Source: Sedimentisphaerales bacterium
GTDB lineage: Bacteria; Planctomycetota; Phycisphaerae; Sedimentisphaerales; SM23-30
Assembly: GCA_963663805.2 (NCBI GenBank)
Contig: CAXXMR010000027.1
Location: 19,971-83,970, forward strand
DNA: 64,000 bases
Reading direction: 5' to 3'
The notes below the pieces were generated by a model. That model made no database searches and was not told the DNA's origin. It saw nothing but the letters and a program-made list of their open reading frames with translations. Both the position numbers and the translations under genes were made by a program. Numbering within the stretch: the first letter of the stretch is position 1; every line of letters starts with the position of its first letter. This document shows positions 1 to 19,710 of the stretch, one piece after another.

Positions 1-1
1 C

Positions 2-439
2 GATGCTTTTTCAGAAGAGAAAACCCGCAAATCTGGCTCCATTTTCAATGCTAATCACCACTGGGAACCAAAAACCAAAGTCAATAGAGCCGTGCCAATT
101 AGCAAATCCCTGCGGTTTTATCTGAATCAATATCAGCTTAGGCCGTCTATAGGGGGGTGGTATTTCCCCAGTCCCAAAGGTGTCCACTATGACCCGGATA
201 ATTTCAGCCGGGATTTAAGAAGTGTAAATAAAAATGCAAGATTAAAATGGAGTTCTCTGGACTACAGGCATACTTTTGGCAGCCAGTTAGCCATGAAAGG
301 CGAAAGCCTGTATAAAATATCTAAGCTGATGGGTAATTCCCCGGAGATATGCCGCAAACATTATGCCGCCATTATCCCGGAAAGCCTGATGGACTGCGTG
401 GACTTCGGGCAGCCTTTACCGGTTGCAATCACTATGTGA
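2..439 (+). CDS. tyrosine recombinase (phage-type integrase), C-terminal part; 5-prime end lies outside the window
   Basis: The frame is open from the window edge. WEPKTKVNRAVPIS...LDYRHTFGSQLAMKGESLYKISKLMGNSPEICRKHYA is the catalytic C-terminal box (RHT...H/Y) of tyrosine recombinases. It is clearly paralogous to the C-terminus of the full integrase at 19829-20998. Confidence 0.85.
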   Translation, partial: DAFSEEKTRKSGSIFNANHHWEPKTKVNRAVPISKSLRFYLNQYQLRPSIGGWYFPSPKGVHYDPDNFSRDLRSVNKNARLKWSSLDYRHTFGSQLAMKGESLYKISKLMGNSPEICRKHYAAIIPESLMDCVDFGQPLPVAITM

Positions 440-510: not shown

Positions 511-567
511 TTGTAACTTAAAGTTATACCTCTTGTCATGTAATCATAGTCAGAGGTATGAAATGGC

Positions 568-3051
568 TTACGTTGTAATTTCTGTAACAAGTCCGATTTG
601 CTGAGCAATCGGTGTATATAAATCAACTTTAGTCGAAGGAGTACTGATTGTTATTATCAGTGAATACCTACATTTCTTCTCAGCAAAACCAAGATGTTTT
701 CGCTCTCTCCACCATCCGGTCACAGGAAAGACGGCAACTTGGCCGCATTCTGCTAATTCTACGGCAGAGGTAGTCCACCAATCACAGTGAACAGAGCCTT
801 TTGTTCTTAAGCGAGAACCGATAGACCAGCTAATTGGATCTGTTGTAGACGGACGTTCTTCTTTCTCATCCCATTCGTGACTACTGATTCTCTGCTTGAA
901 CACACTTTCTTTTTCAACCGGACCTTTAAGCGCAAAACGCAAGCCATGTGAAGCGTATCGGAATTTAGTCCCCCAACCTCGACCGGCTGGACTTGGCTCA
1001 ACAAAATACGAAAGAGTAATTTTTACAGTCACATCTTGATCACCTAAACCGTCCAATGCTTGTTTTGGCCACGGCAGTGAATGCAGAACAAAATGATTGG
1101 TTTTCGCATCTTTTCCATCCATCATGAAGGGCTGTATAGTGCCCTGATGGATAAGAGATACATTATTTTGAATGGTGTGTCTCGCTTTTTCTAAGTTCGG
1201 AACACCATACCCAAAACAACGAAGCCTTCGGTGTTTATCTACTTCTCGTTCGCCAGGAATTTGTTGCCTCATAGCATCTGTCCACTCTGCCGAATGAACC
1301 ATCAATGCCCGAATTGTTTCTGGCCAAAAACTTGGGTAGTCTGCCATTAGAATTGCCGCATAACGTGCAGCCTGAGCCGTTGCAGCACTTGTATCGCTTG
1401 TCCATGATAACAAGTGACCAGTTCGATCAAGGGTAGTTGTCAAAAGAGCAAGATCATCGCACCCATCAACTTGCCCGGAAGGTGAACTTACATAATTTCC
1501 ACCTTCCATCACAATATCAGGTTTGATTGGCCATATGTGATTATTCCACGAGCATGAAGTTCGGCTTGTTGGACACAAACCGCCCCTTGGCGCCAAAGCC
1601 TGATAACCATCGAACTCTCTTGATCGAATTTGAATCCTATCTGTAAAAGCTCCTACTGTCAGAGCATTCCAACTTTGAGCAGGGTCTTCAATGTTTTTTG
1701 CGAGATTGCTTTCTAAATACCTGTAGTTTGTGTCAGTTTGTGTATCTCTTATGTTTCCGGCAGAAATCACATATAGCCTTTGGTCGCCATCAGATTTTCC
1801 TGAAGAATGCTGGTCTACAGCCCCTGACCATGATGATGGCCTACCATGGTCGCGTCCTTCATCGCTCGAAGTAATCGGAAGACAGGCAACTCTACGTCGG
1901 TCCGGTTTTTGACTCTCTGCTTTTTCTAAACTTTTCTGAGTAACATAGCCCCAAGTGTCCTCACTATGAGGATGGTTTGTATGAAGCATCCGAACTGATT
2001 CTAAGTGGTGCGAAAGTTGTAATTGATGGTTATTGGCCAATAATTCAGGGAGCTTATCTCCATACAAAACAAGCCCCGCCATTTCAGTGCCGTGTGATTG
2101 AATGTGATCTACAACTGGCCATTGAGGGTCATATGTTTGTGCATCATCATCAGATATTAAAGGTCGTATTAGAGGATGCTCAGTATGTACTCCATAATCA
2201 AGCATGCATACAGAAGGGGCATTTGGACTAGGCAAGATCAAACGACTCGCTAAATCGTCAACATACATTTTTTGATCTCGAGGCGGCAGTTGAAGAAATT
2301 CCGTTGGAACTTCTTTTGCTTTTCGAAATTCTGCAATTCTGTCGAGAAGAGGTATAAATATCTGTGTCCAGTCTTGTGTTGAACCATGGGCTAGAAAAAC
2401 TAATCTTTCAGGAAAGCTTATTGTATGCTGACTTATTTGCAAATTTGAACCTGCCGTTAATGCAACAAATTCTGAAAAAACATCATCCGAAATTTCTGTG
2501 CTGGAAACTCGAATCCATACTTCCCACCATATACTTTCGTTATTTGTTCTCGGAAATAGATTATCATCATCAGTCCAAAAAGAACGTAATACAGGGTATC
2601 GAATGCGCGAAATGCCAGCCACAAGATCTTCGTTTTTAGGACGTTGCTTGCCTCGACTGTTGTTTTCAGTTTCGTATCGCTCAATCTTTCGAATGAAATT
2701 TTGCAGTTTTCCTTCAGGGACATGTATTGTGGCATGAATTTGATTGCCAATTGTTTTAACGGTTAATACTTCAATGGGTGGTTTAAGTTTAAAATCTTGA
2801 AGGCTTTCAATTTTTAGTCCATAATCCTGCTCTCCGACAATTTCTAAGCAAATATCATGAATGATATGTCCTGTTCGCTCTGCTTCTTGATTAGCTTGTC
2901 CAGTTGCTTGATCTATTTCTTTCAGCAATTTTCTTGCATGAACCCTCCTGTCTCTTGGTGGCACCTCAAATTGCCCTCCACCTATTTGTGTAGATGTGTA
3001 ATCATGTGGTTGGCCAGGATCATCTACGATAATATGTTTACGTTGTAGCAT
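568..3051 (-). CDS. ietS: S8 subtilase-family serine protease, 827 aa (IetS-like defence protease)
   Basis: The Asp/His/Ser triad motifs appear in subtilase order: MLDYGV, SHGTEMAG, SDTSAATAQAARYAA. A strong RBS (AGGGAGGAG) lies 20 bp after the upstream AAA+ gene. The pairing with an AAA+ ATPase matches the published IetAS architecture. Confidence 0.7.
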   Translation of the reverse strand: MLQRKHIIVDDPGQPHDYTSTQIGGGQFEVPPRDRRVHARKLLKEIDQATGQANQEAERTGHIIHDICLEIVGEQDYGLKIESLQDFKLKPPIEVLTVKTIGNQIHATIHVPEGKLQNFIRKIERYETENNSRGKQRPKNEDLVAGISRIRYPVLRSFWTDDDNLFPRTNNESIWWEVWIRVSSTEISDDVFSEFVALTAGSNLQISQHTISFPERLVFLAHGSTQDWTQIFIPLLDRIAEFRKAKEVPTEFLQLPPRDQKMYVDDLASRLILPSPNAPSVCMLDYGVHTEHPLIRPLISDDDAQTYDPQWPVVDHIQSHGTEMAGLVLYGDKLPELLANNHQLQLSHHLESVRMLHTNHPHSEDTWGYVTQKSLEKAESQKPDRRRVACLPITSSDEGRDHGRPSSWSGAVDQHSSGKSDGDQRLYVISAGNIRDTQTDTNYRYLESNLAKNIEDPAQSWNALTVGAFTDRIQIRSREFDGYQALAPRGGLCPTSRTSCSWNNHIWPIKPDIVMEGGNYVSSPSGQVDGCDDLALLTTTLDRTGHLLSWTSDTSAATAQAARYAAILMADYPSFWPETIRALMVHSAEWTDAMRQQIPGEREVDKHRRLRCFGYGVPNLEKARHTIQNNVSLIHQGTIQPFMMDGKDAKTNHFVLHSLPWPKQALDGLGDQDVTVKITLSYFVEPSPAGRGWGTKFRYASHGLRFALKGPVEKESVFKQRISSHEWDEKEERPSTTDPISWSIGSRLRTKGSVHCDWWTTSAVELAECGQVAVFPVTGWWRERKHLGFAEKKCRYSLIITISTPSTKVDLYTPIAQQIGLVTEITT

Positions 3052-3071
3052 TAGGCTCCTCCCTAAATATG

Positions 3072-4049
3072 TTATTCATATCGTTGACGTAGTACTATTG
3101 CCTGTTTTAATTCGTCGGTTCTTATTTTTTTCCTGTCATCAAGCACGGCTTGTTTAGCCGCATCTTCACAGGCTTTTACAATTTCTGCGTGGGGCATATT
3201 TTCTGCTGCTTGAATTATGGATTTCCAACCGATTCTCTCCAAAACAAAATTGCTAAGGCGGTTTTCAATTAAATTTCGAACCATAGAAGGCTGAGGTATA
3301 TTATACCTTAATGTATCGTCAAATCGCCTAAAAAGAGCATTATCTAAAAAAGTTTCAAGATTGCTTGCTGCAAGAATGATGCTATTTGAACGATCTTCTT
3401 CCAGAAACACCAGAAACGAATTCAAGACTCGTCTAATTTCGCCAACATCCTGTCCCATGCTGCGTTGGGCACCTATAGCATCGAATTCATCAAAGAAATA
3501 AACACCCCGCGTTTGCTTCATAGCTTCGAATATATGTCTTAACTTTACTGCTGTTTCACCCATATATTTTGTTATTAAGATATGAAACTGAACAGTTAAC
3601 AATGGCAAGCCAAGTTCACCGGCCAATGCTGCTGCTGTCATCGATTTTCCACAGCCAGAGGGACCTACCAACAAAATTTTACGTCGTGGGAATAGTCCAT
3701 GTGAAAACAAACGGTCGGATTGCCTGTACTCATAAATGACTCTTCCAAGTCTTTCTTCAAGGTCTGTATCTAATACCATATCTGAAAGTCTTGTTTTGGG
3801 GAAAGTTGCCGAGAAAAGCCCGCTAAGGGTACCGGTCGGTTGAACTATAGGAATAGAGCTTATATTTGATGATTTTTCTTTTTGGTTGTTTCTTGCATCT
3901 TCAATCAGTTTACGAAGGTCTTCGGCTAATTTTGATTTTCCGGATCTTGCAGCTTGGGCAGCAATTTGGGAAGCAACTGACAAGAACCTTTCAGGATTAT
4001 GTTCAGTATAGCTCTCTATCAATGCTTTCAGTTGCTGCGCTGTTGCCAT
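3072..4049 (-). CDS. ietA: AAA+ ATPase, 325 aa (IetA-like)
   Basis: Walker A is LLVGPSGCGKS and Walker B is VYFFDEFD. Sensor-1 is ILAASN and the RRFD arginine region is present. The gene sits directly upstream of, and is co-oriented with, the S8 protease gene. Confidence 0.75.
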   Translation of the reverse strand: MATAQQLKALIESYTEHNPERFLSVASQIAAQAARSGKSKLAEDLRKLIEDARNNQKEKSSNISSIPIVQPTGTLSGLFSATFPKTRLSDMVLDTDLEERLGRVIYEYRQSDRLFSHGLFPRRKILLVGPSGCGKSMTAAALAGELGLPLLTVQFHILITKYMGETAVKLRHIFEAMKQTRGVYFFDEFDAIGAQRSMGQDVGEIRRVLNSFLVFLEEDRSNSIILAASNLETFLDNALFRRFDDTLRYNIPQPSMVRNLIENRLSNFVLERIGWKSIIQAAENMPHAEIVKACEDAAKQAVLDDRKKIRTDELKQAIVLRQRYE

Positions 4050-4091
4050 TTAGTTTCCTTTGATATGACGAGAAAGTATTCTTATAACACC

Positions 4092-4295
4092 TTACATGTG
4101 TTTGGTAGCCATTGGGTTAGCAACTTTCAGCAAAAAATCCTGTAAGTCACTTTTTCTGAACATACGATATTCATTGGCTGGGTTATGAAAAACGGGGATT
4201 TTCCCATCACTTGCCCAAGATCTGATTGTGTTTGGAGAAACACCGAGTATTTTGGCAGCTTCACTTGTTAGCACATAGTTATTTAATTTTTCCAT
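4092..4295 (-). CDS. small MerR/excisionase-type helix-turn-helix protein
   Basis: LTSEAAKILGVSPNTIRSWASDGKIPVFHNPANEYRMFRKSDLQDFL is a MerR/Xis-like HTH. The start is taken at MEKLNNY; the ORF is open to 4364. It lies 42 bp upstream of the AAA+ gene on the same strand. Confidence 0.6.
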   Translation of the reverse strand: MEKLNNYVLTSEAAKILGVSPNTIRSWASDGKIPVFHNPANEYRMFRKSDLQDFLLKVANPMATKHM

Positions 4296-4388
4296 AAGGC
4301 GTCCAGAGAAAATCAATTGCATCGAAACACTAACAAAGTATAACAAACCCTGCAAATCATGCAACTGCTTTTTTTGGGGTACTTCTAC

Positions 4389-4405
4389 AAAAAAAAGGGG
4401 GGGGG
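4389..4405. repeat. A8 G9 homopolymer pair
   Basis: Read directly: aaaaaaaa ggggggggg. It lies between the HTH gene upstream region and the integrase remnant. Confidence 0.9.
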
Positions 4406-4409
4406 AATT

Positions 4410-4625
4410 ATGGGTCTCAAAGGTGGATTATAACCCAGATAATTTCAGCCGGGATTTAAGAAATGTAAATCGGAAAGCAAGATTAAAATGGGCCTGTCTG
4501 GATTACAGGCATACTTTCGGCAGCCTTCACCTGTGGCAGTTTCCCTGTAAAGATAAAACAACCACCCGTCCGGGCCACGTTCCGCTAAAGCGGCTTTCGC
4601 TGTCCGTCCGGGTGGTTGTAGCGTG
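4410..4625 (+). pseudogene. integrase remnant (internal fragment plus 3-prime flank) with a hairpin
   Basis: 4413-4513 aligns with 170-283 of the left integrase (YNPDNFSRDLRNVNRKARLKWACLDYRHTFGS). It then jumps at a shared GGCAGCC to the equivalent of 407-510, including the hairpin. The N-terminal three quarters of the gene are absent. Confidence 0.8.
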
Positions 4626-7473
4626 TTCAGAAAAAAACGGGCAACAACTTGTCTGGTTGCTACCCGTTCAGTTAATCACACCAACTCATATTTGCTATGA
4701 GGCTGTTTTACTTACAGAAGATAACTCGGATTTCCATTCTGTCAGGAGTTCATCGAGCCAGTCGTAAAGCATTTCTAAGGATTTCTTATACTGGTCTTCG
4801 GTAACCTCTTTCTGGAAGTCGGGGTTGGTTAGCCAATCGTTTTCTATGATTTCGATTATATCTTCGACCATTAACATAGTCTCGTAAGTGGTGTATTCCC
4901 GTTCGGGTTGATTCTTTTGCCATTTGGCCTGGCGGTTGGATTCGATTTGTTCGTCGGTCAGGATGGTTGCTTCGGGGATTGACGCGGTGCGCATCATGGC
5001 GACGGCGGTAGAGTCGGAATCATACCAACAGGCTTGCCAGAGCCAATAACCGAAAGTTTCGGCGTTGGTGGAATCTACGAAAATCATTAAATCATCGAGG
5101 TCGATATATTGGTTGTTGTCGAGGTCACAACGAGAATCCCAATTATCGTTGGGGGTGTTGGGGTCTCCGGTATAAGTGGGGTCGTAGTTGCTCCAGGCTT
5201 TCTCGAACAAGGCAAACTCCTTGAGGTTTACCACGCCATCGGCGTTATAGTCCAGAGTGCAACTTATGCCGGAATCGCAGGAATAATATTCATCGGCTCC
5301 CATATCTACATAAGTACCATTGATACGGTCTTCGTTGTCGATGTCGGTTTCGCCGGTTATTACGTTGGTATTATTGCCGGCGTCGATACAGAGCGAATTA
5401 CTGGAAAGGTGGAAGTTGCCAAGGGTTTCATCGGCATAGGCGAAGCAAGGGTCGTCAGCGATATTATAGTCATTGTTGGGAATAGTAACATTTTCTATAC
5501 AGCTATCAGTGGCAGTAATAGAAGCAGGAAGCTGGGTGCCACTGCTATTATTACCCCAGAGAATATTGTTGACTGTGTAAAGATATGGCAAACCAGCTTG
5601 ATTGGTATAAATACCCTGATTGTCATTATAGACAATGGTGTTATTGCGAATCATTGAAGATGATGAGCAGGAGCTAATAAAAATACCATATCCGGCATTA
5701 TGGTGTATCCAGCAATTTTCCAGCAAAAGCATTTCCGCATCAACATAAATACCGTACAGGTCATTATGTGCGATAATACAATGATCTACGGTCAGGGTAT
5801 TGTTGTTTCCGGTTTTGATACCATATCGACCGTTATCAGTAATACGGCAATTTCTGATAGTAACATCGCACGAAGCAGCGATACTGACAGCATCATAAGA
5901 AGCGTTAATCAAACTAAAACCATCAATAATGATATTCTGGGCATCAGCAGCGATACTTATGATATTACCAAATTGATTTGCTCCGCTTAGATAAGTGCGA
6001 TAATGAGCGGGGTGGCGTTCCGACAGCGTGGTTTCATTACCGAGAAAACCACCGTAAAGCGATACGCCGGAAGGAATGGCAAAAGTGCTGTTTAGATAGT
6101 CAGGGGTATAGGTACCGGAGGCAATCCAGATTTCATTGCCGCAACCATTGGCGGCACGACTAAGAGCGCTATGGAGAGAATTATAGGCATTGGCCCAACT
6201 GGTGCCGGTATTATATCCATCCGCAGAGTTATCAACGTAAATAACGTCGCCGCCAAAACAGCCAACCGGGGTTTCGAGGGATTCTCGACGATAGACCAGA
6301 TCGGTTTCGATTATACAGATATTAGCGATGGTGGTAAGCGGTTCGGTCGATTCATTGATGATAGTATTCAGGGTGATGGCAGAGCAGGGATCGGTATCTG
6401 CCAGTGTGCCAATATTCCATACCCAGGCGTAATATTCCTCAAGGAAGTTACTATATTGCGGTGTAGAAGAATCGTAATCGGTTTTGGTGCTGAGATAGTC
6501 AGTCAGTTTGGTGCTGTTGTGGTTATTACCGGCTGGACCATAAGTAAGGGTGTATTGCAAAACATCGTTGTAACCGGGGTAATTATTAGGGTCATTACGA
6601 TTAACATTGTCGGCCTTGTTGAGGTATATTTCCATATCCTCCGGGGCCGAGGCACAAATCATTTCGCGGGGCGTACTTGAGGAAGTTGTGTCGCCGGTTC
6701 CAAAATCACCGTTGTTATTAGTTCCCCAGGCGTAGATCATGCCGTGGCCGTCAATGGCGAGATGGTGAGTGTAGCCATCGTCAATGGCGTTGATATTTTC
6801 CAGATAGCCGGAGCGGCTGAATTGTTCACCATCCGAAACCAGTTGAGGGTTATTGCCGGACCACTGCCAGACAAAACCAAAACTGTCCAGAGCAAGGAAG
6901 TGACTGTTGCCCGCACCGATGGCAATAATATCTTCGAGATAGGTTGTCTCCATATCTCCACCGGGAACTTTTGTCGGTGCGGAACCGGGGGACCACTGGT
7001 AAACGTGTCCGTCCCCGTCGAGAGCCAGCGAATTGTTACAGGAGGCGATTTCGACAATGTTTTCCAGATAGCCCGACGGGGTTTCCATGTCGCCGTCAGT
7101 TACCCGATAGGCAAAAGGATTGCCGCTGCCCCATTCCCAGACGTTGCCGTTTTCGTCCAGTGCGAGGGAATGAGCAACTCCGGCGTCAACTTCGATGATG
7201 TCGTAACCGGTATCATAGCCAAGATATAATATGCCAAGGTTCGGGTCGTTGGCGGTTACGACTTTATGGGGGACATCCCGGTAATCAGGTGTACTGAAAG
7301 TACCAATACCCAACTGTCCACTATTGTTGTTGCCCCACGCATATACATAACTATCACTTGACGCCGCCAGCGAATGCGTGCCGCTGCGACCGGCAGAGAT
7401 ACAGGTTATGTCTTCAAGATGACCACTGACGCTGCCCTGTTGGCCATCGTGAACAAAAATAGGAGATAAAATG

Positions 7474-8999
7474 GACTCTGTAGCATCTTTACCGGCAACA
7501 TAGCATTCCAGTCCTTTCTTCATGAAGTGTTGTTGTAGTTCGTAAACGGCCTTGGGACTGCTCGTCACGCTGCATATCAATAGCCACCCGCTGGCTGATA
7601 TTGGTTTGAGTTCGCACTCGATAGACACTCTTCTGCATTTTTCGATGGCGGCGATAGCCCCGTTCAACCGCGTTGGACGTTGACGGCAGTTGTGAATCAT
7701 CAAGGAAGGTCAACGCCTTTTCGATATTGGGGGTGAACAATTTCTTAAGAGTCTGTCGCAAGGTTTTGAATCGCCCAATTCGCCGGCGTAACACAGCCAA
7801 CTTTTCCAATGCCGTTTCCGTTCGACAACGACGGTCAAAAAGACGATAAACCTGATCCATGATCGAGCGTAAATTTCTCAGGTTTGGCAAGCCTCTGGTT
7901 ATATGCAAAAACTTCTTCTTATCCTTCGAACTCAATGAATGTTGTACAAATAAATATCTGTGCTCAAACAGATCGGCAATTTTCTTTTCCTGTTTCTTCT
8001 TGCGTGATGCCGCTTTCTTCGCGGAAGAAGACGATGGACGGCCACGTTTCAGCTTGGGCAACTTTGCCTTGAGCTCTCGTCGTACTTTCGTAACAGCTTT
8101 GAGTATTTCTCTGTTGATCTCCTTGAGGACATGAAATTCGCACACCTGATGAGCAGCGTCAGGAAATATCAGCGCCAATGGCTCCGGATATAAAGGCGAG
8201 CCGTCGGTCGTAACACCCCGTAATGTCAGCGTTCTTTGTACCAGTTCGGTCCGAAACCGAAAGGAAAAGTTTGTTATATCTTCATGAGTGGGATTATGGT
8301 CAAGAACCTCGTAGATGAGCCGTTTGAAGGTGTGGTTATCCACTATGGATAAGACGCAGAATGGCCCATCATATAATTCGTCCGCTGCAATATAGCCGGA
8401 GAAATCAGCCAGAACACCATCAAGGTACTCAGTTGTAATTCGTTGCTCAGCTTTTTTTCCCCGTCGCCTCAACCCAGTTTTGAATTGTAGCCCAAGGGAC
8501 AAAAACTCTGTGGTCTCGCCACAAGTGCCATGATGCCGGGCGGTACGGCAGGCCGTCCTCCACAACCAAACGCACGGCCAGGTGAACAACCCGACGGGTA
8601 TAGTGACAGCCGGGGTCCGCAAGATCAGTGAGGTCGGCATTGAAGTATCGTTTGCATTTTGAACAACGATGCTGTGAATAGCTGACCCAAATCTCGATGG
8701 GACGGTTGGCAGCCAGGTCTCCGAGGTCATGCAGTTTTCGCCTGAAGACTTTGTCTCGATACGACGAGTGGCCGCAATGGGGGCAAGGACGCTTTTTGTA
8801 GGTGCGTGAACGCCGTTTGATTTTTGCTTTCGGTAAATCTTCAACACCAGTAATACCTTCGGTTATATCGGATACGTATTCGCCTGGCCCAGCCATAATC
8901 GTCTCTCCTGGAAAATTCCACTGGTCTGTTCTTCCAGGAGTTTTATCGGCTAATTTGCGAAAATCTCATTAAAAATGCCGGTATCTATGCTACAGTCTC
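7474..8999 (-). mobile_element. ISL3-family insertion sequence, complete copy (1526 bp)
   Basis: Imperfect terminal inverted repeats of about 23 bp: GACTCTGTAGCATCTTTACCGGC versus the reverse complement of GCCGGTATCTATGCTACAGTCTC. An 8-bp direct target duplication ATAAAATG lies at 7466-7473 and 9000-9007. Confidence 0.85.
7489..8896 (-). CDS. ISL3-type transposase in two frames that meet at an A7 run
   Basis: The N-terminal frame (8447-8896) has a zinc finger (CPHCGHSS…CSKCKRYF) and an HTH. The C-terminal frame has the DDE region (…AADELYDG…VCEFHVLKEINREILK). The frames switch at T7 on the plus strand, 8452-8458. An A6 run would give one continuous ORF. Confidence 0.75.
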
Positions 9000-9430
9000 A
9001 TAAAATGTTATTATTATAAGAACCATTGCCTATTTGACCGTAATTGTCTCCGCCCCATGCGTAAATATAACCATCTTCATCAAAAGCAAGTGAATGATAC
9101 CAGCCAGCATCTACGGCTATAATGTTTTCGAGAAAGCCTGAAGATGTATTCATTTCGCCATCATGAACAGAAACTAGGATCGTTGAACTACCGTCATTAC
9201 CATTTCCTAACTGTCCGAAACTATCGGAACCACAAGCCCAAACCGTTTTGTCTTCCATAAGGGTTAATGTGTGATACTCTCCACCTGAAATAGCGGAGGC
9301 TTTTAGGCATGTATCTTCAGCGCTGAGATTATATGAAATCCCAAATACAAAAAGTACTATTGACATTCTGAGTGTGCGCACCATCTCTGTATCTCCTTTC
9401 AAAGAGGTGAAATGTAAGTAAAAGGATTAA

Positions 9431-10078: not shown

Positions 10079-10832
10079 ATCAAATCCTCCGTAATAGTGT
10101 AATTGTTAAGTTTCCATCCTGATTATACGTGGTGTCCAGTCTATTTGACCAGGTGTTTTTTACTTTTTTGTGGCAGTGCATAAAATAAGGGCACCGCCAA
10201 ACGCCATGCTTCCCATTGGCCCGCTAGAGCCTGTGAAGAACACACGCCAGCGATGCCCAATGCCAAATGGCAAATGGGCACCTACCGGTCGCGATCCTTC
10301 ACGTTTTAAACTAGCGGTTCATGGGAAGACGCTCACTGGTAATAGTGATTCACCTATTCAAATATCAAAAACGGCGCATTTCGCCTAAATTAACGCTCCT
10401 AAAAAAATACAAACCACCTTCCCAAACTTACGACTTCCTGTACTTTATCAGATGTTTAATCCCATTGCAAGAGAAAAAACTTATTTTTTTGTTACAGCAG
10501 CCCCGACCAACTGCTGTAACTATAGGGACTTAGCGTCCTTTGTGCGCAAAGGGGGACGCCGCCTCAATTATGCCAACTCAAGGCCCGCAAAAGCCCGGTA
10601 AGGTCATAAAAGCGAACGGCGCCCTTGTATCAAAATACACGGGCACCGAGCCTTTCAGACTACCTTACCTTATCTAATTTTGCGGTTTAGAGTTGGCAGT
10701 TTGAAATCTCAGTGCAAGACGATTTCTGGTATTAAATTGTAATTATGCTCGTTTAAGCCAAATAAATCTCCTGAAAGAAAAATCGTATAGTAATGATTAT
10801 GACGATTGGGTTTTTATGATTCAAGTGTTTTT

Positions 10833-12023
10833 TTAGGAAATCCTATAACTTTTTACCCAAATTTGTACAGTGCCTTTTAGGTCAGACTGGGATTTAAGGA
10901 TGTTCAATATGCCGGAGTCGGTAAAAGAGCGGGTGGCTTTTTTGACGCTGCCCAGCAGATAAACGCCACCGGTTTTAATATATGCGGTGGTAGTGAAATC
11001 CTGCGAATTGGTGATAGGGGCCGAATTTTCGACATAACCGACCACTGACGAAATAGTGATACTAACACCCAGCTTACAGGTATCAATAGTTGATTCACGG
11101 ACGGAACAACTAAAATCCAGCCCGGTTTGAATATATTCAAAACCTGAGGTTGAGACGGTGCCATTATCTGAAACTACCTTTTTAGGGACCGGGACACGCT
11201 CACCAGAGGAAAACTGAGCATTGCCGCCATCCATCAGAACAAACATAGGCCGGGCAATCATGTTAATATTGGCTTTTTCTCGTTCTGCCTTTAGGATAGC
11301 ATTTAATATGCCGTTGGCGGCTGCGTATGAATTGCTTAGTTTGGTGCTTTCGGCCAGATTGAGGGCCAGTTCACTATCCAGCGTGAAATCAACCCCAAAA
11401 GTCTCTGAGAGTTCGTCCCGTAGGTCCACAATGTACATCTGGACCACCCAGCTATTAGATGGGGCCGAGTCTATACCGTCGAGCATTTCCGAGACACGCC
11501 GGAGAACTTCGACGGTATCACCAATTACCACCAAACCGTCATTATAAGCAACTGCCCGGCCATGCTGAGAGAGCAGCGACGTAATGGCCTGCTGGAGATC
11601 GTCGGCCCGCATACGCTTTACCACTCGAACCAGTACCCCTCTGTCCTCTGGCTGTAATGTACCCAGAAAATACAAATTGCCGGTTTTCGTGACCTGTACG
11701 CTCAACCGCCGGGCGACCACGCCGAGTATATCAGATACCGTCTGGTCCTGTACTTCGACGCTTACCGGCTTTTCGTCCAGATCACTTTCACATACCACAC
11801 TGACCCCGGATTCATTACTGAGCCAGCGCAGGAACATTTTTAAGGATATATCCTGACAGGACAGGGTTAGCAGCGTTTCTTTATTTCTGCTGTCAGATTC
11901 AGTCTCGGAGGTTTGCTGCAAGGCTTTATAATACTGCTGAAATTCTACTTTGGTTTCGAGTTTTGGTAGTTTGGAACAACCGCAAACCCAAACAGAAAAT
12001 ATAACGATCATCAATTTACGCAT
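10833..12023 (-). CDS. secretin (pIV-like) lipoprotein
   Basis: Lipobox VWVCGCS. The C-terminal secretin core reads MIARPMFVLMDGGNAQFSSGERVPVP…GFEYIQTGLDF…GGVYLLGS. Confidence 0.75.
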   Translation of the reverse strand: MRKLMIVIFSVWVCGCSKLPKLETKVEFQQYYKALQQTSETESDSRNKETLLTLSCQDISLKMFLRWLSNESGVSVVCESDLDEKPVSVEVQDQTVSDILGVVARRLSVQVTKTGNLYFLGTLQPEDRGVLVRVVKRMRADDLQQAITSLLSQHGRAVAYNDGLVVIGDTVEVLRRVSEMLDGIDSAPSNSWVVQMYIVDLRDELSETFGVDFTLDSELALNLAESTKLSNSYAAANGILNAILKAEREKANINMIARPMFVLMDGGNAQFSSGERVPVPKKVVSDNGTVSTSGFEYIQTGLDFSCSVRESTIDTCKLGVSITISSVVGYVENSAPITNSQDFTTTAYIKTGGVYLLGSVKKATRSFTDSGILNILKSQSDLKGTVQIWVKSYRIS

Positions 12024-12688
12024 AGTAATTTAACTCCTAACAATACAAAGAAGTGAGCCGGATAAAACCAGCGCCAAAGCCAATTGGGAATCTGTAATTT
12101 AAAATTCTTGGGGCAAAGATAGATAACCGGCAAGGCCAGTATAGCGAAAATCTGGACCGGATTATTTGTAATAGAGGAATACAGCAAAGTAAGGGCAATA
12201 TAAAATATTATCCCTTTTACTTTGTGAGTCTCTAAAAGTCTGAATACAAACAACAGTAACAGGCCGTATATGCTGTATTCAACCAAAGCGGTACATAATC
12301 CCAGAAATACCGCAATAGCTTTATGGCCGCTCTGCCAAAGCTGATAAACCAGAATGAAGATTGCAAAGGTAAATACAATATTGAATTTGCACGAGACAAA
12401 CAAAGCGAAACCATATTGAGCCAGTGCCGCTATAACTGCCAGACGCAGGAAGTACCGGAATTTATTGTCTGTCCAGTCTATCCCGGTTGCCATCAGGTAG
12501 GCATAAATGGGAAAAGCTATCCTGCCGACCATTCGCAAGGCTAATACTTGCGGAAAGAATATCATACCGATATGGTCTAAAACCATCGTAATAATGGCAA
12601 TGCACTTGAGATATTCCCGCCGATTGTCAATTAGTTTTCCATTCGTAGTATAGTTCCATCGGACAATATTATCATTCGTTTGCGCCAT
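12011..12688 (-). CDS. traX: TraX-family membrane acyltransferase
   Basis: Polytopic membrane protein with TraX signature blocks: LKCIAIITMVLDHIG, GRIAFPIYAY, NIVFTFAI and the C-terminal FYPAHFFVLLG. These compare with F-plasmid TraX LKLLALVLMVADH, GRGAFPLFA and FYACHLAVLG. Confidence 0.75.
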   Translation of the reverse strand: MAQTNDNIVRWNYTTNGKLIDNRREYLKCIAIITMVLDHIGMIFFPQVLALRMVGRIAFPIYAYLMATGIDWTDNKFRYFLRLAVIAALAQYGFALFVSCKFNIVFTFAIFILVYQLWQSGHKAIAVFLGLCTALVEYSIYGLLLLFVFRLLETHKVKGIIFYIALTLLYSSITNNPVQIFAILALPVIYLCPKNFKLQIPNWLWRWFYPAHFFVLLGVKLLCVN

Positions 12689-13881
12689 ATTATTTCCTCA
12701 ACTTTCTTGCCCTGATATATGCCGGAATCTATTATTTCCCCTATTTGCAAATCCAAACCATTTTTCAGTAAAACACTGTCCCTTGTCATAAGGGCTATGG
12801 CAGATTCGGAAATAAGTTTTTCCTGCAAGGTTTGTTTTTCCTGATTGGCCTTTTCTAGTTCCTGCTGAATTTGCAAAAGTTCATTGGCGGGAATAACCGG
12901 CTGGGCAGTATTAACAGCAGGAGCCGTTTTAACGTTTTCAACTTTCTTAATCGCTGTTTGTTTCTTGGCAAGATAGCTGAGCTTTTCCAGAAAAGTTCTG
13001 AATAATATTTTGCTGCCGCCGAACAACACTATCCAGCAGAACAAAGCGACAATTAACGCCCTTGAAGCCAGAGCGAGAGGGTGAGTCTTGATAAACCACC
13101 AGAAAACACCTATACGGCCATGCTTTTGAAATTCATGTTGGGCCGCCTTGCCAGCCTTACCGCCGGTATGCGGGGCGACAAAGGAGTCATAGAACTGGAA
13201 ATAATACGGGTCGAGCGTGAAAGTCTCCCGGTGTGATACTTTCCACTTGCCGTCAATGGAGCGTTTTTCAATCTGATGTATCTTTTTTTCATACACTCCG
13301 GTTAATGCTGCCTGTAATTCGTACCAGTGCGCCATCTGTATTTTGAAGAACGGGTCACGGTTGGTTTCGCCATTGACAAGGCTGATTAAAACTGAGGCTT
13401 CCCATTTAATTTCATCGGCCAGCTTATTAGGTGATTGGGTCAAAAATTCAACCGTTGCCCCTCTATGCCGGATTTCACCCAACCACTTGCCCCATTTTTG
13501 CCGTTGATGTTTGGGAGTGGATACGCCACAAAAATTATGTATTTCATCTATGGCGATATGAGCGTTATTTATATCAATATCCTGAAAATAACTCCACGGT
13601 CCCTCCGCTAAATCTGTTTGCCGACGATCATAGGTCAGCATCCATTTATCAAGCTCGGCTTTCGGGATAATATGTATTCTTTCCAGAATCTTTTCTTTTG
13701 GGATATTATGTTTTTTGCTGACCACTTCGGCCATCTTGTCAGCAAAGGCCGGATAGTTAGTGTAAATATGGCCGGTTTCTTTCGGCAGAAATTCATCGAC
13801 CATAAACCTTGAACATCGGCGATAGGTCTTGCCGGAACCCGCCGGGCCGGTTGTCAGATATACTGTACTTCTTTTTGCCAT
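12631..13881 (-). CDS. Zot / pI-like morphogenesis ATPase
   Basis: N-terminal Walker A LTTGPAGSGKT. A single central TM helix (LIVALFCWIVLFGGSKILF) is followed by a coiled C-terminal domain. This is the typical inovirus pI topology. Confidence 0.8.
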   Translation of the reverse strand: MAKRSTVYLTTGPAGSGKTYRRCSRFMVDEFLPKETGHIYTNYPAFADKMAEVVSKKHNIPKEKILERIHIIPKAELDKWMLTYDRRQTDLAEGPWSYFQDIDINNAHIAIDEIHNFCGVSTPKHQRQKWGKWLGEIRHRGATVEFLTQSPNKLADEIKWEASVLISLVNGETNRDPFFKIQMAHWYELQAALTGVYEKKIHQIEKRSIDGKWKVSHRETFTLDPYYFQFYDSFVAPHTGGKAGKAAQHEFQKHGRIGVFWWFIKTHPLALASRALIVALFCWIVLFGGSKILFRTFLEKLSYLAKKQTAIKKVENVKTAPAVNTAQPVIPANELLQIQQELEKANQEKQTLQEKLISESAIALMTRDSVLLKNGLDLQIGEIIDSGIYQGKKVEEIIWRKRMIILSDGTILRMEN

Positions 13882-13883
13882 TT

Positions 13884-14204
13884 TTACCCCACAGTTGGAA
13901 TTAATTTCAATACGAATTTCACGGTAACAAATACCGCAACAAAAGTGTAATACACTGCTAATAGGGTAACACCGTAATCAAGAGGAACCCATGAATTGGC
14001 AACCTCAATCCAGACTTTCATTGGCTCAAGATTGGCCTGCCAGTCAGCCGGGACCATTTCCAGCAGGAAACCCAGCCCGGTATCAACCAGAGTCTTTATG
14101 GAGTCACTAAGCCAGTTCCAGAAGGCTACTAGAGCATTTATAATGGCCGATTCCCACCAGCTAGGCTGTTCCTCGCTGGCAAGTATATAGAGAAAATTGA
14201 ACAT
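13884..14204 (-). CDS. small membrane protein, pVI-like by position
   Basis: 106 aa with a C-terminal hydrophobic helix (LLAVYYTFVAVFVTVKFVL). It lies between the adsorption-protein genes and the pI gene. Confidence 0.45.
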   Translation of the reverse strand: MFNFLYILASEEQPSWWESAIINALVAFWNWLSDSIKTLVDTGLGFLLEMVPADWQANLEPMKVWIEVANSWVPLDYGVTLLAVYYTFVAVFVTVKFVLKLIPTVG

Positions 14205-14216
14205 GATTATGCCTTT

Positions 14217-14639
14217 CTAATATTGCCGTAATACCAGCCAGATATTTCTGATGAGCCAATAGGTCATGAGCGCAATAAACAACATGCGTATCCATTTACG
14301 GAGCTGGTCAACTGCCGCCCCCATTGTTGTTGATGTATCAGGCACGAGATTAATTTTGTATTCCTGAACACCAGCACCGGGAAAGGGTATACGTAGGGTA
14401 ACGGTATAATCACGCTGGTTATCAGGCCGGAGGGATTCCCAGTTGCCCCGGATTTTATCGAAGCGCCCTAACATATCATCATAGTCTTGATCGCCGAAAT
14501 TAAAAGATGAGGGATTAGTGGTATAATTCCCCGGTTCGTACTGGTCGGGGTCTTGATAAGTATCATCATTATCGGGAGCGTCATTATTGGTATCACCTGT
14601 ACCATCGCCGCTATAACCGCCCGTTGAATAAACCATCAT
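14217..14639 (-). CDS. acidic protein with a C-terminal membrane anchor (possible C-terminal module of the adsorption protein)
   Basis: The N-terminus is rich in D, N and G. The C-terminal TM is IRMLFIALMTYWLIRNIWLVL. It overlaps the upstream ORF by 29 nt in the +1 frame. Confidence 0.45.
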   Translation of the reverse strand: MMVYSTGGYSGDGTGDTNNDAPDNDDTYQDPDQYEPGNYTTNPSSFNFGDQDYDDMLGRFDKIRGNWESLRPDNQRDYTVTLRIPFPGAGVQEYKINLVPDTSTTMGAAVDQLRKWIRMLFIALMTYWLIRNIWLVLRQY

Positions 14640-15714
14640 GGTAATCGTCCGGGTCAGTGGGGTCAGTTGCCGGCGGTGCTACCGGGTTGGGATTATCAAC
14701 CGTTGGCGTAGGTGTCGCCGGGTTGGTTTCGCTGTAGTTGCTTTCCCCGTCGCCGTCATAGTCCAGATTGTTCCAGTCCGGGTCATATAATTCTGAGGGG
14801 TAATCATCGGAATTTAGCCAGTTAGAGCCGCTATCCCATTCCAGACCATCGGTATAGCCATCGCCATCCGAATCATTCAGACGCCAGTTACCAACGCCGT
14901 TATCACTAACGGGATTAAACATATTTATTTCAGAATCGAAATCACCCGTTCCCGGTGCTTTTGATGTTGCATCATACGGGTCGAAACCGTGTGTTTCTTC
15001 CCAGCCATCGGAAAAACCATCACCATCAGAATCAATATTCCGTTTATTCTCCCAGTTATCAGCCCATGCTGTGGGGTCTTCCTGCCAGAGTTTATAATCG
15101 AAAGGGTCGTCGTTAGTGCCAGTGGCAGAAGTCCAGTTTGTACCTTCAAAATTTTCACCAAATATCTTTTTGCCAAGTTCATTCATATACTGGTCATGTA
15201 ATGGGCAGTCTTTATCAATCTGGTCCGGTATGCCGTCCAAATCTTCATCTATTAATGGATTGTTAATTTCATTGGCGTAATCATCCAGTAAATCCAAATC
15301 ATCCGGCGGGGAATAGGGGCCGCCATCAACAAACTGGCTGTAATCCGGGGCAGAACTGCAAGCACTGTAATAGCTTTCTGCATTACCGCCCCAGCTACCA
15401 TCTACATACCAGCGACCACCACCAGAACTATCCCACTGAAAACATTTGTAGCCTGAATATGAATGCCATGTACCGGAATAATAGTACATTGAACCTGTCC
15501 CGCAATACCTTCTGGTGCCATCTGATGAAGTATAAACCGTCGGCATTAGAAACGTATAGCCAGGTTGACTGCCGGTAAACATGCCTATCCCTTCCCCCGC
15601 GCAAATATCAACCGGGGAAGGTGTACTGTTATCAACGGCAAAGGTCGGCAAAGCCGTCAATAGTGATATTACCAGAGTTTTCTTGAGTCTTTTGCTAACA
15701 GGATTAAACGCCAT
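14611..15714 (-). CDS. secreted adsorption-protein candidate (pIII-like) with thrombospondin-type-3-like calcium-binding repeats
   Basis: Signal peptide MAFNPVSKRLKKTLVISLLTALPTFA. Repeated motifs DSDGDGFSDGWE, DSDGDGYTDGLE, DYDGDGESNYSE and DEDLDGIPDQID. It is the largest virion-type ORF and sits in the gIII position. Confidence 0.55.
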   Translation of the reverse strand: MAFNPVSKRLKKTLVISLLTALPTFAVDNSTPSPVDICAGEGIGMFTGSQPGYTFLMPTVYTSSDGTRRYCGTGSMYYYSGTWHSYSGYKCFQWDSSGGGRWYVDGSWGGNAESYYSACSSAPDYSQFVDGGPYSPPDDLDLLDDYANEINNPLIDEDLDGIPDQIDKDCPLHDQYMNELGKKIFGENFEGTNWTSATGTNDDPFDYKLWQEDPTAWADNWENKRNIDSDGDGFSDGWEETHGFDPYDATSKAPGTGDFDSEINMFNPVSDNGVGNWRLNDSDGDGYTDGLEWDSGSNWLNSDDYPSELYDPDWNNLDYDGDGESNYSETNPATPTPTVDNPNPVAPPATDPTDPDDYHDGLFNGRL

Positions 15715-15890
15715 GATACAGCACCCCAGATAATAGTTGCGGTTATACACAATACCTTTAACATGAATTTGGATTCATAAATGTCGTTCTGTATCGTCTG
15801 CCATTGATTAGGGTCAATAACCACCGTAGAGGCAAGGCAGCTTGAGGACAGAAAGAGCAATATCAATATGAATTTCATTTTATTCCCCAT
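15669..15890 (-). CDS. small membrane protein (minor coat candidate)
   Basis: Signal-like N-terminus MKFILILLFLSSSCLA plus a second hydrophobic helix. It lies within the coat gene block. Confidence 0.4.
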   Translation of the reverse strand: MGNKMKFILILLFLSSSCLASTVVIDPNQWQTIQNDIYESKFMLKVLCITATIIWGAVSWRLILLAKDSRKLW

Positions 15891-15899
15891 AAAAAAAGG

Positions 15900-16043
15900 C
15901 TAAGTGGAGCGTTTGCCCCACTTTAGCCCGACTCGGATAATGGTAAATGCAACAGAACCGCCGATAAGAATAAGCAGCCACGGCCCGATTAAACTTACTA
16001 CCGCAACCAGAAAACCACCTATATCATTAAGCTCAAATTCCAT
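15900..16043 (-). CDS. 47-aa Pf3-type coat-like protein (below the ORF-track size cut-off)
   Basis: My own translation is MEFELNDIGGFLVAVVSLIGPWLLILIGGSVAFTIIRVGLKWGKRST. It has an acidic N-terminus, one TM helix and a basic tail. Confidence 0.45.
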   Translation of the reverse strand: MEFELNDIGGFLVAVVSLIGPWLLILIGGSVAFTIIRVGLKWGKRST

Positions 16044-16071
16044 TGCAAATACCTATTATCCTTTAACAAGA

Positions 16072-16299
16072 TTAACCAATCTTGTTGCCCCATCGCAGGG
16101 CACGTCTTACCACCAGAAAAGCGAAGTAACCACCCACAGCAACCGCAGCAACAGCGCCGAGGGCAGTAATACCGGCGGTGATATAACCGCCTACATCAAT
16201 TCCGGTATCGGGGATGGTGACTCCACTGGCAAAAACACGGGAAGCACCGGCACCGACCAAGACAGCGCCCCCAAGGGCTAAATTCCTGACCTTTTTCAT
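16072..16299 (-). CDS. major coat protein candidate (g8p-like)
   Basis: MKKVRNLALGGAVLVGAGASRVFA | SGVTIPDTGIDVGGYITAGITALGAVAAVAVGGYFAFLVVRRALRWGNKIG. It has a signal peptide with an AxA-type cleavage site, an acidic mature N-terminus, a Gly/Ala-rich TM and a basic C-terminus. Confidence 0.7.
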   Translation of the reverse strand: MKKVRNLALGGAVLVGAGASRVFASGVTIPDTGIDVGGYITAGITALGAVAAVAVGGYFAFLVVRRALRWGNKIG

Positions 16300-16503
16300 A
16301 ACAAAATCCTTTCGCAACACAAAACACAATAAAATATAAAACAATTCAGTTTGGCCAAAACTGTTACACGCAAAAATTAGATATTCTCACCATGCCAGAA
16401 GTTGAAAATCTTTAATCCATTACAGGCAACGACTACAAAATGAAGGGCGGCATGAAATATAAAACCACATGACCAGCCGTAAATGACATAATTCCAGGGG
16501 CTG

Positions 16504-17466
16504 CTAAATTCCATATTGTTCACCGCTTTCGTCAAAATAACTCTCATAGTTACTTACCGGGCAGGTTCGGTAGCGTTCCTCATCGAGTGTTTCTTCGAGA
16601 ATTGCCCGCACCCAGTCAGGCATAAAATCAGGTTTTCTCTTATTTATCAAGTGAAGTGCGGCGGCGTCCGCCGCCGCCAACCCTGCAAAGCAGCACAAAT
16701 GGTCACGGTCAACATCAAGATGCATCCAGCCTTTCTCCGAACCAATGACATTAACATTATTTTCCATGCAGGCTTTTAATAAAAAACCGATATGAACATT
16801 AACGGTGAAAAAACTTGGGTCAGTAACACCTTCCCGGCATAAGGTTTTATTTCGATATTCCTCCAGACGAACAGCAATAGGGATATAACAGCCAGATTTT
16901 CCCCAAGGGTCGGGGATTTTCTTGTCGTACTTTTCCTTTTCGTTTTCTTCCTCCCAGAAGCCGGGACTGACGGCAACAATTTTTACCGTCTTGGGTTTTT
17001 CCGCCAGAATCCACGCCGGGACTTTTCCATCTTTGGCTACGTATTTAGTTACGTAACCGGCAATAGAGTCTTTCCAGCGGTTGACCCAGACGAATCCATG
17101 CCCCCAGAGTGCCTGTAGATCACTCTGAGGGATGAACCCGGAATAATCAATGATAAGATGAAAATGAACCCAGCCGCCTTCCTGAAATTCTAATTTCCGC
17201 ATCCATTTACCGGTTAGCGATTCTCCTAGATACCGGGATAGACGCCTGATGAATAACGGGACGTGCTGTTGTTCTTTCATCTGGTAATAAAGTTCCCTTG
17301 GCGATTCGTAATCGTCATGTCTGTAAGTTAAAGTAATGAACAACCCACGACGGCCACCCATACGGTTTTTAATTCTTTCCGCGAGGTTAAACGAAAGAAA
17401 CGGGACGCTTAGAGGGTCAAACCAACTTTTCAGACTGGGAACTTTTACCGCTATCATGATTATCAA
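16504..17466 (-). CDS. rolling-circle replication initiator (HUH superfamily, two-tyrosine type)
   Basis: HUH motif WVHFHLIIDY. Catalytic motif GYVTKYVAKDGK (Y-x-x-K-Y, as in phiX174 gpA-type Reps). Confidence 0.75.
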   Translation of the reverse strand: MIIMIAVKVPSLKSWFDPLSVPFLSFNLAERIKNRMGGRRGLFITLTYRHDDYESPRELYYQMKEQQHVPLFIRRLSRYLGESLTGKWMRKLEFQEGGWVHFHLIIDYSGFIPQSDLQALWGHGFVWVNRWKDSIAGYVTKYVAKDGKVPAWILAEKPKTVKIVAVSPGFWEEENEKEKYDKKIPDPWGKSGCYIPIAVRLEEYRNKTLCREGVTDPSFFTVNVHIGFLLKACMENNVNVIGSEKGWMHLDVDRDHLCCFAGLAAADAAALHLINKRKPDFMPDWVRAILEETLDEERYRTCPVSNYESYFDESGEQYGI

Positions 17467-17477
17467 TTCCTTGGAAA

Positions 17478-17744
17478 TTATTCTTTTTCGTCCACGGGTT
17501 TAATGCCCGCAAGGTCAAACTGGGGGACATTGTTAAAGAAACTAAAAGTACCAAAACAGCGGACGTTTTGACCTATAACAACTTCCTGATAAAGACTTAT
17601 ATCTTCTGTCCGAAGATTGAAATTCTTACCGAGAGTTGCTACGGAAATGATATATTGACGCCATTTTGAGTCGGCCTTCTTGGGCATAATGACTCTGGTG
17701 TCTTGAACGATACCGCAAATTTCAAATCGGTCCAACAATTTCAT
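17478..17744 (-). CDS. small ssDNA-binding protein candidate (gV-like by size and position)
   Basis: 88 aa, next to the Rep gene. No recognisable motif; the call rests on position only. Confidence 0.35.
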   Translation of the reverse strand: MKLLDRFEICGIVQDTRVIMPKKADSKWRQYIISVATLGKNFNLRTEDISLYQEVVIGQNVRCFGTFSFFNNVPQFDLAGIKPVDEKE

Positions 17745-17794
17745 AAAACTGGCTCCTAAAAAAGTAGTAAAAAAATAAAAACCTTTTTTTGCTC

Positions 17795-17916
17795 AGGCTC
17801 CCCTACAAATCCGGCAGCAGCGCTGCTCACCGTCCCTTTCTTTTTCGCCCTCCAACCGCTTGCGCGAGGGCGAAAAAGCGGAGACGGCAGCAGCTTAAAT
17901 TTTCGTTGGGGAGCCT
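17795..17916 (-). promoter_or_regulatory. long rod-like hairpin in the prophage intergenic region (candidate packaging signal or origin)
   Basis: Outer stem AGGCTCCCC (17795-17803) pairs with GGGGAGCCT (17908-17916). Middle stem CTGCT-CA-CCGTC pairs with GACGG-C-AGCAG. Inner perfect 12-bp stem TTTTTCGCCCTC (17841-17852) pairs with GAGGGCGAAAAA (17866-17877). A 12-nt palindrome AGCAGCGCTGCT lies at 17816-17827. Confidence 0.55.
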
Positions 17917-19695: not shown

Positions 19696-19710
19696 ATCCT
19701 TGTTATAAAG

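Follow-up and report, generated by a model that had tools for sequence, protein, structure and literature searches.

We found that three genes near the start of a 64,000-nt stretch of DNA from a Sedimentisphaerales bacterium of the phylum Planctomycetota (contig CAXXMR010000027.1; this whole stretch is hereafter "the window") include an intact copy of the known IetAS pair, in which an AAA+ ATPase gene (IetA) is followed by a subtilase-type S8 protease gene (IetS), so that the locus is a new member of this family and not a new type of system. We consider it likely that this is a functional-looking member working as a two-gene, toxin-antitoxin-like module of abortive infection, with the small helix-turn-helix (HTH) gene that leads the operon serving as an accessory regulator. 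IetAS is a validated defence and toxin-antitoxin system whose mechanism is unsolved (it was described as unknown in April 2026; PMC13069673), and the locus leaves that mechanism unsettled. The three genes are:

4092..4295, minus strand: HTH gene, 67 amino acids (aa), read from the ATG at 4295 within an open reading frame (ORF) at 4092..4364
3072..4049, minus strand: IetA, 325 aa
568..3051, minus strand: IetS, 827 aa

An earlier reading made from the letters of the window (the sequence-only reading) had described this locus, at 568-4295, as three co-directional genes, and the ORF listing agrees, placing all three on the minus strand in the same direction, with gaps read from the sequence of 42 nt between the HTH gene and IetA and 20 nt between IetA and IetS. 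The HTH frame could be extended to a TTG at 4364, and the ATG at 4295 is favoured by the MEKLN... start in its orthologues at two related loci (L087 and L114). Each of the three genes ends in TAA, ribosome-binding sites are good (e.g., GGGAGGAG ahead of IetS), and the cassette as a whole has a G+C content of 41.2% versus 48.1% in the ordinary chromosomal part of the window.

The ATPase and the protease each carry the motifs of their enzyme class, which the sequence-only reading had called intact. IetA matches Pfam AAA at residues 125-247 (1.3e-25, 90.8 bits against a 21.2-bit cut-off) and possesses the features of the classical AAA+ clade, namely Walker A (GPSGCGKS, 129-136), an aromatic-hydrophobic-Gly pore loop 1 (KYMG, 161-164; absent from the sequence-only description), Walker B (VYFFDE, 183-188) and a second region of homology with arginine fingers (...LDNALFRRFD). 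For IetS, Pfam Peptidase_S8 covers residues 278-616 (1.6e-52, 179 bits against a 21.8-bit cut-off), and the catalytic residues D285, H320 and S555, together with the oxyanion-hole N433, occur in subtilase family order and are invariant in alignments of 22 and of 85 homologues. Searching solved structures by sequence placed p97/Cdc48/NSF-type AAA unfoldases nearest to IetA (~1e-40) and turned up no IetS or IetA relative whose structure is solved.

Assignment to IetAS comes from two sources, both of which bear out the proposal that the pair would score as IetA and IetS. In scans run with the PADLOC models only, outside the PADLOC program's own thresholds, the best match of IetA was PDLC02196 (2.9e-70, residues 2-322 on model positions 2-322 of 374), with three more IetA models at 1e-33 to 1e-63, and the best match of IetS was PDLC02198 (8.9e-31, residues 265-819 on model positions 240-779 of 795), with six more IetS models also matching. 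The second source is the Ti-plasmid locus of pTiC58 that the window protease matches (DNA 100% identical to NC_003065.3, 97873-101373), where the window IetA is 52% identical to the ATPase over 323 aa (E 1e-109) and the window IetS is 39% identical to the protease over 814 aa (539 bits), with the N-terminal, S8 and C-terminal regions all covered. By homology with such relatives, IetA would be the antitoxin or regulator partner of the pair.

Outside the S8 model, IetS has ~277 N-terminal and ~211 C-terminal residues, much the lengths given by the sequence-only reading (about 270 and about 200), which had seen in them no recognisable motif. That part of its description did not stand: because the pTiC58 alignment spans all three regions of IetS, the seemingly motif-less flanks are the family's own domains, the N-terminal one having a precomputed Pfam match (PF27160, Y4kK_N) in homologues and the C-terminal one being a family region with an invariant PVTGWW.ER.H motif. 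The protease can accordingly be laid out as follows:

2236..3051, minus strand: IetS N-terminal module, residues 1-272 (PF27160 Y4kK_N in homologues, pTiC58 alignment, AlphaFold)
1204..2220, minus strand: IetS subtilase domain (Pfam Peptidase_S8 and D285/H320/N433/S555)
571..1179, minus strand: IetS C-terminal beta-rich domain, residues 625-827 (PDLC02198 and pTiC58 alignment)

An AlphaFold model of IetS built from the 85 homologues (predicted local distance difference test, pLDDT, 85; predicted template modelling score, pTM, 0.72) places beta strands in the C-terminal part, and its best Protein Data Bank matches (E 1e-17 to 1e-11) are to subtilases retaining a propeptide at the N-terminus, a beta-sandwich or P domain at the C-terminus, or both, among them Pro-Tk-SP (3afg), furin/kexin, EpiP and unprocessed pro-subtilisin E. 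Domain orientations differ between IetS and these subtilases (template modelling score, TM, 0.25-0.33 on the query), and from the alignment lengths, as distinct from residue-level inspection, the C-terminal beta domain appears to resemble those of pro-subtilases and kexins. Modelled alone, residues 1-275 (pLDDT 84) form a long helix (35-60) and then two ferredoxin-like beta-alpha-beta-beta-alpha-beta lobes, and fold searches with this N-module returned weak matches, every one of them to a tandem ferredoxin-like module (tandem ACT domains, for example). The subtilisin propeptide shares the basic ferredoxin-like fold, a likeness that does not show a specific relationship to the IetS N-module.

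An exhaustive profile search with the N-module found 2,052 representative clusters (50% identity), and among ten odd-length members sampled, an S8 domain followed the module in nine, the tenth being a 377-aa protein with no Pfam match and possibly a fragment. The idea that the N-module is a swappable sensor paired with other effectors was therefore not supported, no other architecture appearing among the ten, and within this sample it goes with the protease.

Genetic work on relatives offers a frame for how such a pair may operate. For pTiC58 and mycoplasmas, toxicity of the protease appears when the ATPase is missing and is neutralised when it is present (PMC13069673; PMC8562856); no ietA mutant could be obtained in E. 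coli, and IetAS defence requires protease activity (PMC13069673). IetAS defends by abortive infection, and its toxicity is triggered when one phage protein, YosG of SPbeta, is expressed (bioRxiv 10.1101/2022.08.27.505566). We propose that an IetA hexamer, with its substrate-threading KYMG pore loop, would spend ATP to hold IetS inactive, its probable point of action being the two-lobed ferredoxin-like (propeptide- or ACT-like) N-module of the protease; a phage product, or lost IetA activity, would then free IetS, and the freed cytoplasmic protease would cleave cellular or phage proteins such that infection is aborted. Upstream, the HTH protein and its own conserved promoter block would make up a portable leader cassette that regulates, and probably autoregulates, transcription of the operon.

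The same pore loop also invites a different view, that IetA and IetS together form a two-component ATP-dependent protease, its unfoldase feeding its peptidase (compare the proteasome or FtsH), that degrades specific phage or host proteins directly, with toxicity in the absence of IetA as no more than a side effect of the unregulated peptidase. The threading type of the loop, the resemblance of IetA to the ATPase modules of Cdc48, PAN and FtsH, and the strict coupling of the two genes with their 20-nt gap are all consistent with it. Subtilases, however, are open endopeptidases and do not build chambered assemblies that need an unfoldase. In relatives, genetic data also have the ATPase acting to neutralise the protease, not to enable it (PMC13069673; PMC8562856), and the defence is abortive and involves no direct clearing of phage (bioRxiv 10.1101/2022.08.27.505566), so we regard a joint protease machine as improbable and retain the toxin-antitoxin-like reading.

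IetAS proved to be widely distributed, and its relatives sit in variable, often mobile, and not in conserved housekeeping contexts, as the sequence-only reading required of a defence system. We found more than 2,556 IetS relatives at E <= 1e-5 among the scored candidates, and no fewer than 581 species-representative genomes, spread over many phyla, have a relative, the closest ones being labelled Sedimentisphaerales or Phycisphaerae with some Pirellulales. Wherever the 119 fetched loci have upstream sequence, the gene directly ahead of the protease is IetA, a pairing that is invariant across more than 100 loci of many phyla. Beyond the pair, neighbours are almost never common to different loci (two genes per side in 45 loci, i.e., 180 proteins, fall into 170 clusters); in one example the surroundings are HNH / Mg-chelatase-like with a faint EVE match, in another an insertion separates rnpA/yidD from maf, and in a third the pair belongs to an integrative element, directly preceded by an integrase and followed by a Prim-Pol gene.

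This last context is seen in two Planctomycetaceae metagenome-assembled genomes (L005/L016, 4384-12875), where IetAS lies inside an integrative element with a 469-aa integrase on the IetA strand, 140 nt ahead of IetA, and with DUF1580, a Prim-Pol/D5-type primase-helicase, a ParB-methylase and HNH downstream. The element looks like a satellite or an integrative mobilisable element carrying IetAS as cargo.

Plasmids are a frequent home for the family, and here the evidence bears on whether the window pair might mainly be an addiction module, one that stabilises its carrier element or island by post-segregational killing, and not an anti-phage system. An IetS relative occurs in 453 plasmid records, of which 213 are from Klebsiella and 53 from Agrobacterium and 316 are conjugative; the founding ietAS of pTiC58 was itself defined by plasmid stability and incompatibility (as recounted in PMC13069673 and PMC8562856), the window pair is nearer to this Agrobacterium pair than to the anti-phage equivalogs of NCBIfam, and the window cassette sits amid integrase copies and insertion sequence (IS) elements. 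Set against this, homologous systems give protection from phage via abortive infection (bioRxiv 10.1101/2022.08.27.505566; PMC13069673), the HTH leader is held in common with DISARM-type defence operons, and the element surrounding the cassette is decayed (its integrase truncated), which leaves little to stabilise. We judge a mainly addictive role possible without favouring it, and such a role would in any case be compatible with defence, which we keep as the preferred reading.

Several side observations accompany this distribution. The Klebsiella plasmid relatives are full-length, ~35% identical and adjoined by the ATPase gene; most of the 213 records are near-identical copies, and several annotate the ATPase as 'ATP-dependent zinc metalloprotease FtsH'. 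In the phage collection, two records only contained an IetS relative, and both were short. Another leader gene, ~93 aa long and unrelated to the HTH gene, precedes IetA by 7-19 nt in three distant loci (motif ...RPGRPSDPNW...RKLSMN...ERRVSPMQVAA...), and in a survey of small same-strand upstream ORFs it was the sole recurring one besides the HTH gene:

4714-4992 of locus L033: ~93-aa leader gene
4702-4983 of locus L072: ~93-aa leader gene
272-562 of locus L081: ~93-aa leader gene

Turning to the HTH gene, the sequence-only reading had seen in it an extra regulator joined to the pair in a three-gene cassette. As a conserved third component the gene had to be rejected: among 107 loci with at least 300 nt available upstream of IetA, an HTH homologue stands directly upstream on the same strand in only 3, and in one of these it is a pseudogene. 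The two intact copies are at L087 (67 aa, 81% identity) and L114 (67% identity), while in the copy at L088 (~300-485) codon 6 is an in-frame TAG and 1 nt is inserted, yet the promoter block is kept; a further homologue, at L035, lies ~750 bp off on the opposite strand. The protease of L088 is the closest relative of the window IetS (80% identity). Its decayed HTH copy indicates that the regulator can be lost with IetAS intact, unless it reflects an error of metagenome assembly. The HTH gene is a rare, lineage-specific accessory and not a core part of the system.

As a regulator, in contrast, the HTH protein gained support from its relatives and from the DNA ahead of it. It matches Pfam HTH_17 (7.3e-12) and MerR (1.3e-8), and its best PADLOC match is mad1 (4.9e-8); against NCBIfam MAD1 it scores 23.1 bits, below the 80-bit cut-off, and no MADS genes adjoin. 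A word-indexed search of a collection of 5.8 billion proteins returned eight HTH relatives, two of which lie on long contigs as the first genes of DISARM-type operons, in the order HTH, PDC-S02/Mrr-like nuclease, DrmD, DrmMI at L121 and HTH, DrmD, unknown gene, type III methyltransferase at L122. The closest relatives outside IetAS are 59-77% identical and head such DrmD/DrmMI-type operons at 2-13 nt from the next gene. A block of ~45 nt (TTGnnn, a 16-nt spacer with TTTGnAGGnTTTG, then TATACT) is kept upstream of the HTH gene at L087 and L088, which are IetAS loci, and at L121 and L122, which are DISARM-type. We interpret the window copy as a putative promoter, and list it with the one signal noted at the other end of the operon:

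4325..4368, minus strand: promoter/operator block, with a -35-like TTGCAT (4364-4359), a 16-nt spacer with TTTGCAGGGTTTG and a -10-like TATACT (4342-4337)
526..559, minus strand: stem-loop ATACCTCT...AGAGGTAT, 9 nt past the IetS stop, read directly from the sequence

MerR-type proteins bind conserved spacers between -35 and -10 elements, a behaviour that we carry over to the window block by inference. The stem-loop might conceivably be a terminator; it has no T tract, and a terminator scan made no call there.

These same data bear on whether the HTH protein could instead be an excisionase, that is, an AlpA-type recombination directionality factor surviving from the decayed integrative element (the truncated integrase of which lies ~120 bp off), in which case it would not regulate IetAS. 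Many excisionases belong to Pfam HTH_17, the NCBIfam excisionase-family domain (TIGR01764) scores 28.6 bits, just below its 28.8-bit cut-off, the gene adjoins an integrase fragment (4416-4525, part of a truncated pseudogene), and the HTH gene is missing from most IetAS loci. Yet its orthologues have no integrase partner, neither in the DISARM-type loci nor at L087 and L114, where the gene stands upstream of IetA on the same strand and where, for L087, the called neighbours are DDE transposases. Taken together, the DISARM-type relatives with their short spacing to the next gene, the promoter block that travels with the gene and the match to mad1, a defence-system HTH, favour a portable leader or regulator over an excisionase, which we think unlikely.

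Weighing the proposal as a whole, several points count against it. The NCBIfam equivalogs score far below cut-off (IteA_antiphage at 198 bits against 510, IteS_antiphage at 61 bits against 900), which makes the pair a distant subfamily relative to the experimentally tested anti-phage systems; judged from these scores and alignments, it sits in the IetAS family at large, nearer to the Agrobacterium type than to those equivalogs. Restraint of IetS by IetA, and the function of the window's clade, would carry over from relatives by homology. The propeptide-like view of the N-module leans on weak fold matches (E ~1e-3, TM 0.2-0.37). For the HTH protein, its probable role as regulator of the operon derives from position and association, a generic sigma-70 scan called no consensus promoter at the 4325..4368 block, and the absence of the gene from 104 of the 107 related loci, together with its decay at L088, indicates that it is dispensable.

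The surroundings of the cassette proved rich in mobile elements. As the sequence-only reading had noted, integrase-derived repeats flank the cassette; these, and a third copy of the same integrase family in the same orientation, are:

1..439, plus strand: left flanking repeat, the 3' part of a tyrosine-recombinase (integrase) gene, with an RHTFGS...HY catalytic box
4416..4609, plus strand: right flanking repeat, a 5'-truncated, internally deleted integrase pseudogene (integrase part 4416-4525) with a downstream hairpin region
19817-20998, plus strand: third integrase copy, 68% protein identity to the left copy (1-439)

The left frame is open from window position 2 and probably continues off the left edge of the window. 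The direct repeats are 87% identical between 188-284 and 4429-4525 and 78% identical between 443-501 and 4551-4609, and the right copy has lost 133 bp between two GGCAGCC heptamers. We rejected the notion that the repeats are fresh attachment-site (att) duplications from one recent insertion, given identities of 78-87% and a microhomology deletion in one copy; this divergence and the deletion instead mark them as decayed paralogues of the integrase family to which the third copy belongs, and three copies in the same orientation suggest repeated tandem integration of related elements here.

Two further observations concern these repeats. A homopolymer junction at 4389-4405 (A8 then G9 on the plus strand, C9T8 on the minus) falls exactly between the HTH promoter block and the start of integrase homology and is possibly a scar of recombination or assembly. 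A hairpin lies a few bases past each integrase 3' end (451-508 and 4558-4618, plus strand; folding z-scores -3.4 and -4.6), with a conserved inner 38 nt (TCCGGGCCACGnTCCnCTAAAGnnGCTTTCGCTGTCCG) and outer stems that are wholly different yet pair in both cases (GGCCAAAUG/CAUUUGGCC versus ACAACCACCCG/CGGGUGGUUGU). Rfam gave no match to it, and neither the rest of the window nor the 119 loci nor viral contigs contained a further copy. Possible roles are those of a terminator, of an att-related site or of a small RNA tied to the integrase family.

The neighbouring prophage and IS elements of the sequence-only reading were likewise found, as an inovirus-like (filamentous) prophage at ~10800-21000 beside the third integrase and as IS elements of four kinds, five in total:

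10833-12023: prophage secretin
12011-12688: prophage TraX
12631-13881: prophage Zot-like protein
14611-15750: prophage TSP3-repeat protein
16504-17466: prophage G2P-type Rep, with several small ORFs and the integrase at 19817-20998 on the opposite strand
21866-24417: IS21 istA/istB, side by side with the next two
24523-25536: ISL3
25580-27058: IS66
44044-45831: DDE_Tnp_1 transposase

Between the cassette and the prophage, a large gene for a secreted RCC1-repeat / right-handed beta-helix protein (4695-9402, minus strand; N-terminal part with signal peptide at 8998-9402) appears split by an ISL3-type insertion (~7400-8970), the transposase of which is itself seemingly split into two ORFs that overlap (7489-8847 and 8447-8896). 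The 64-kb window yielded no tRNA gene. When most ORFs of 150 aa or more were scanned with Pfam and PADLOC as far as ~52 kb, the other large ORFs turned out to include IS elements, the inovirus-like prophage and ordinary metabolic genes, and no second defence system came to light. What the sequence-only reading had called a typical defence-island setting is thus mobile-element-rich, without the several clustered systems that define a defence island in the ORFs scanned to ~52 kb.

Such surroundings raise the prospect that the cassette, too, is a decaying, non-functional remnant among dead mobile elements, in keeping with its decayed neighbours (the truncated integrase, the IS-split RCC1 gene and the frameshifted transposase) and with the HTH pseudogene of L088. 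All three reading frames are nonetheless intact at full family length, every residue that is invariant in the 85 homologues is kept, and the ribosome-binding sites are good, so that we hold this to be highly improbable and continue to read the locus as a functional-looking member of IetAS.

With this locus, the IetAS family with all three protease regions intact is seen to reach Planctomycetota as well as many other phyla. Our findings leave the definition of IetAS unchanged, and they may be useful to work on its mechanism or on the regulation of defence operons through two modest additions, an HTH-plus-promoter unit common to IetAS and DISARM-type operons and a domain picture of IetS. A bolder combination, which we advance only tentatively, is that the HTH gene and its ~45-nt block form a self-contained regulatory cassette moving between unrelated defence operons (IetAS and DISARM-type) and that the IetS N-module is a retained, propeptide-like intramolecular inhibitor held or reset by the IetA unfoldase. 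If true, the former would be a new shared family of defence-operon regulators, with a role like that of BrxR or CapW, and the latter would be the first concrete testable model of an AAA+ 'antitoxin' restraining a protease 'toxin'.

Comparison with known systems places the window locus among several relatives. The pTiC58 pair of Agrobacterium (Yamamoto et al. 2009) has the same order, ATPase then protease, and similar lengths (328 and 836 aa versus 325 and 827 aa in the window); it lies on the Ti plasmid with a DUF6088 gene 250 nt upstream and no HTH_17 gene, whereas the window pair is chromosomal, between integrase remnants, and has the HTH gene. The anti-phage IetAS of Gao et al. 2020 and the B. 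cereus m1293 system (Stokar-Avihail et al.) belong to the same PADLOC families and have the same architecture, and homology with them leads one to expect that the window pair, too, would act by abortive infection and be triggered by a phage protein. In ietHAS, an upstream SNF2 helicase that is needed for defence and is antitoxin-like joins the IetAS core (NAR 2026, PMC13069673); like the window locus, this is a three-gene variant with an extra upstream gene, but its extra gene encodes a large helicase while that of the window encodes a 67-aa DNA-binding protein, rare and dispensable among relatives. Likened by description, Mycoplasma TA132/133, from a different phylum, also has its ATPase gene ahead of one for an S8 protease; the ATPase neutralises this toxic protease, and the pair shows direct repeats at its flanks and signs of horizontal transfer (PMC8562856).

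Pro-subtilases such as Pro-Tk-SP (3afg), furin/kexin and EpiP are laid out like IetS, with an alpha/beta module at the N-terminus, then the S8 core, then a beta domain at the C-terminus. IetS differs from them in that sequence identity is just 12-15%, no N-terminal hydrophobic signal-like segment is seen (first 40 residues, read by eye and without a predictor), the two-lobed N-module with its long helix is much larger than theirs, and the protease is partnered with an AAA+ ATPase. Finally, mad1-type HTH genes lead methylation-associated (MADS) and DISARM-type defence operons; relatives of the window HTH gene lead DISARM-type ones, with the promoter block in common, and the window gene departs from these leaders in heading a protease/ATPase system and not a methylation-based one.

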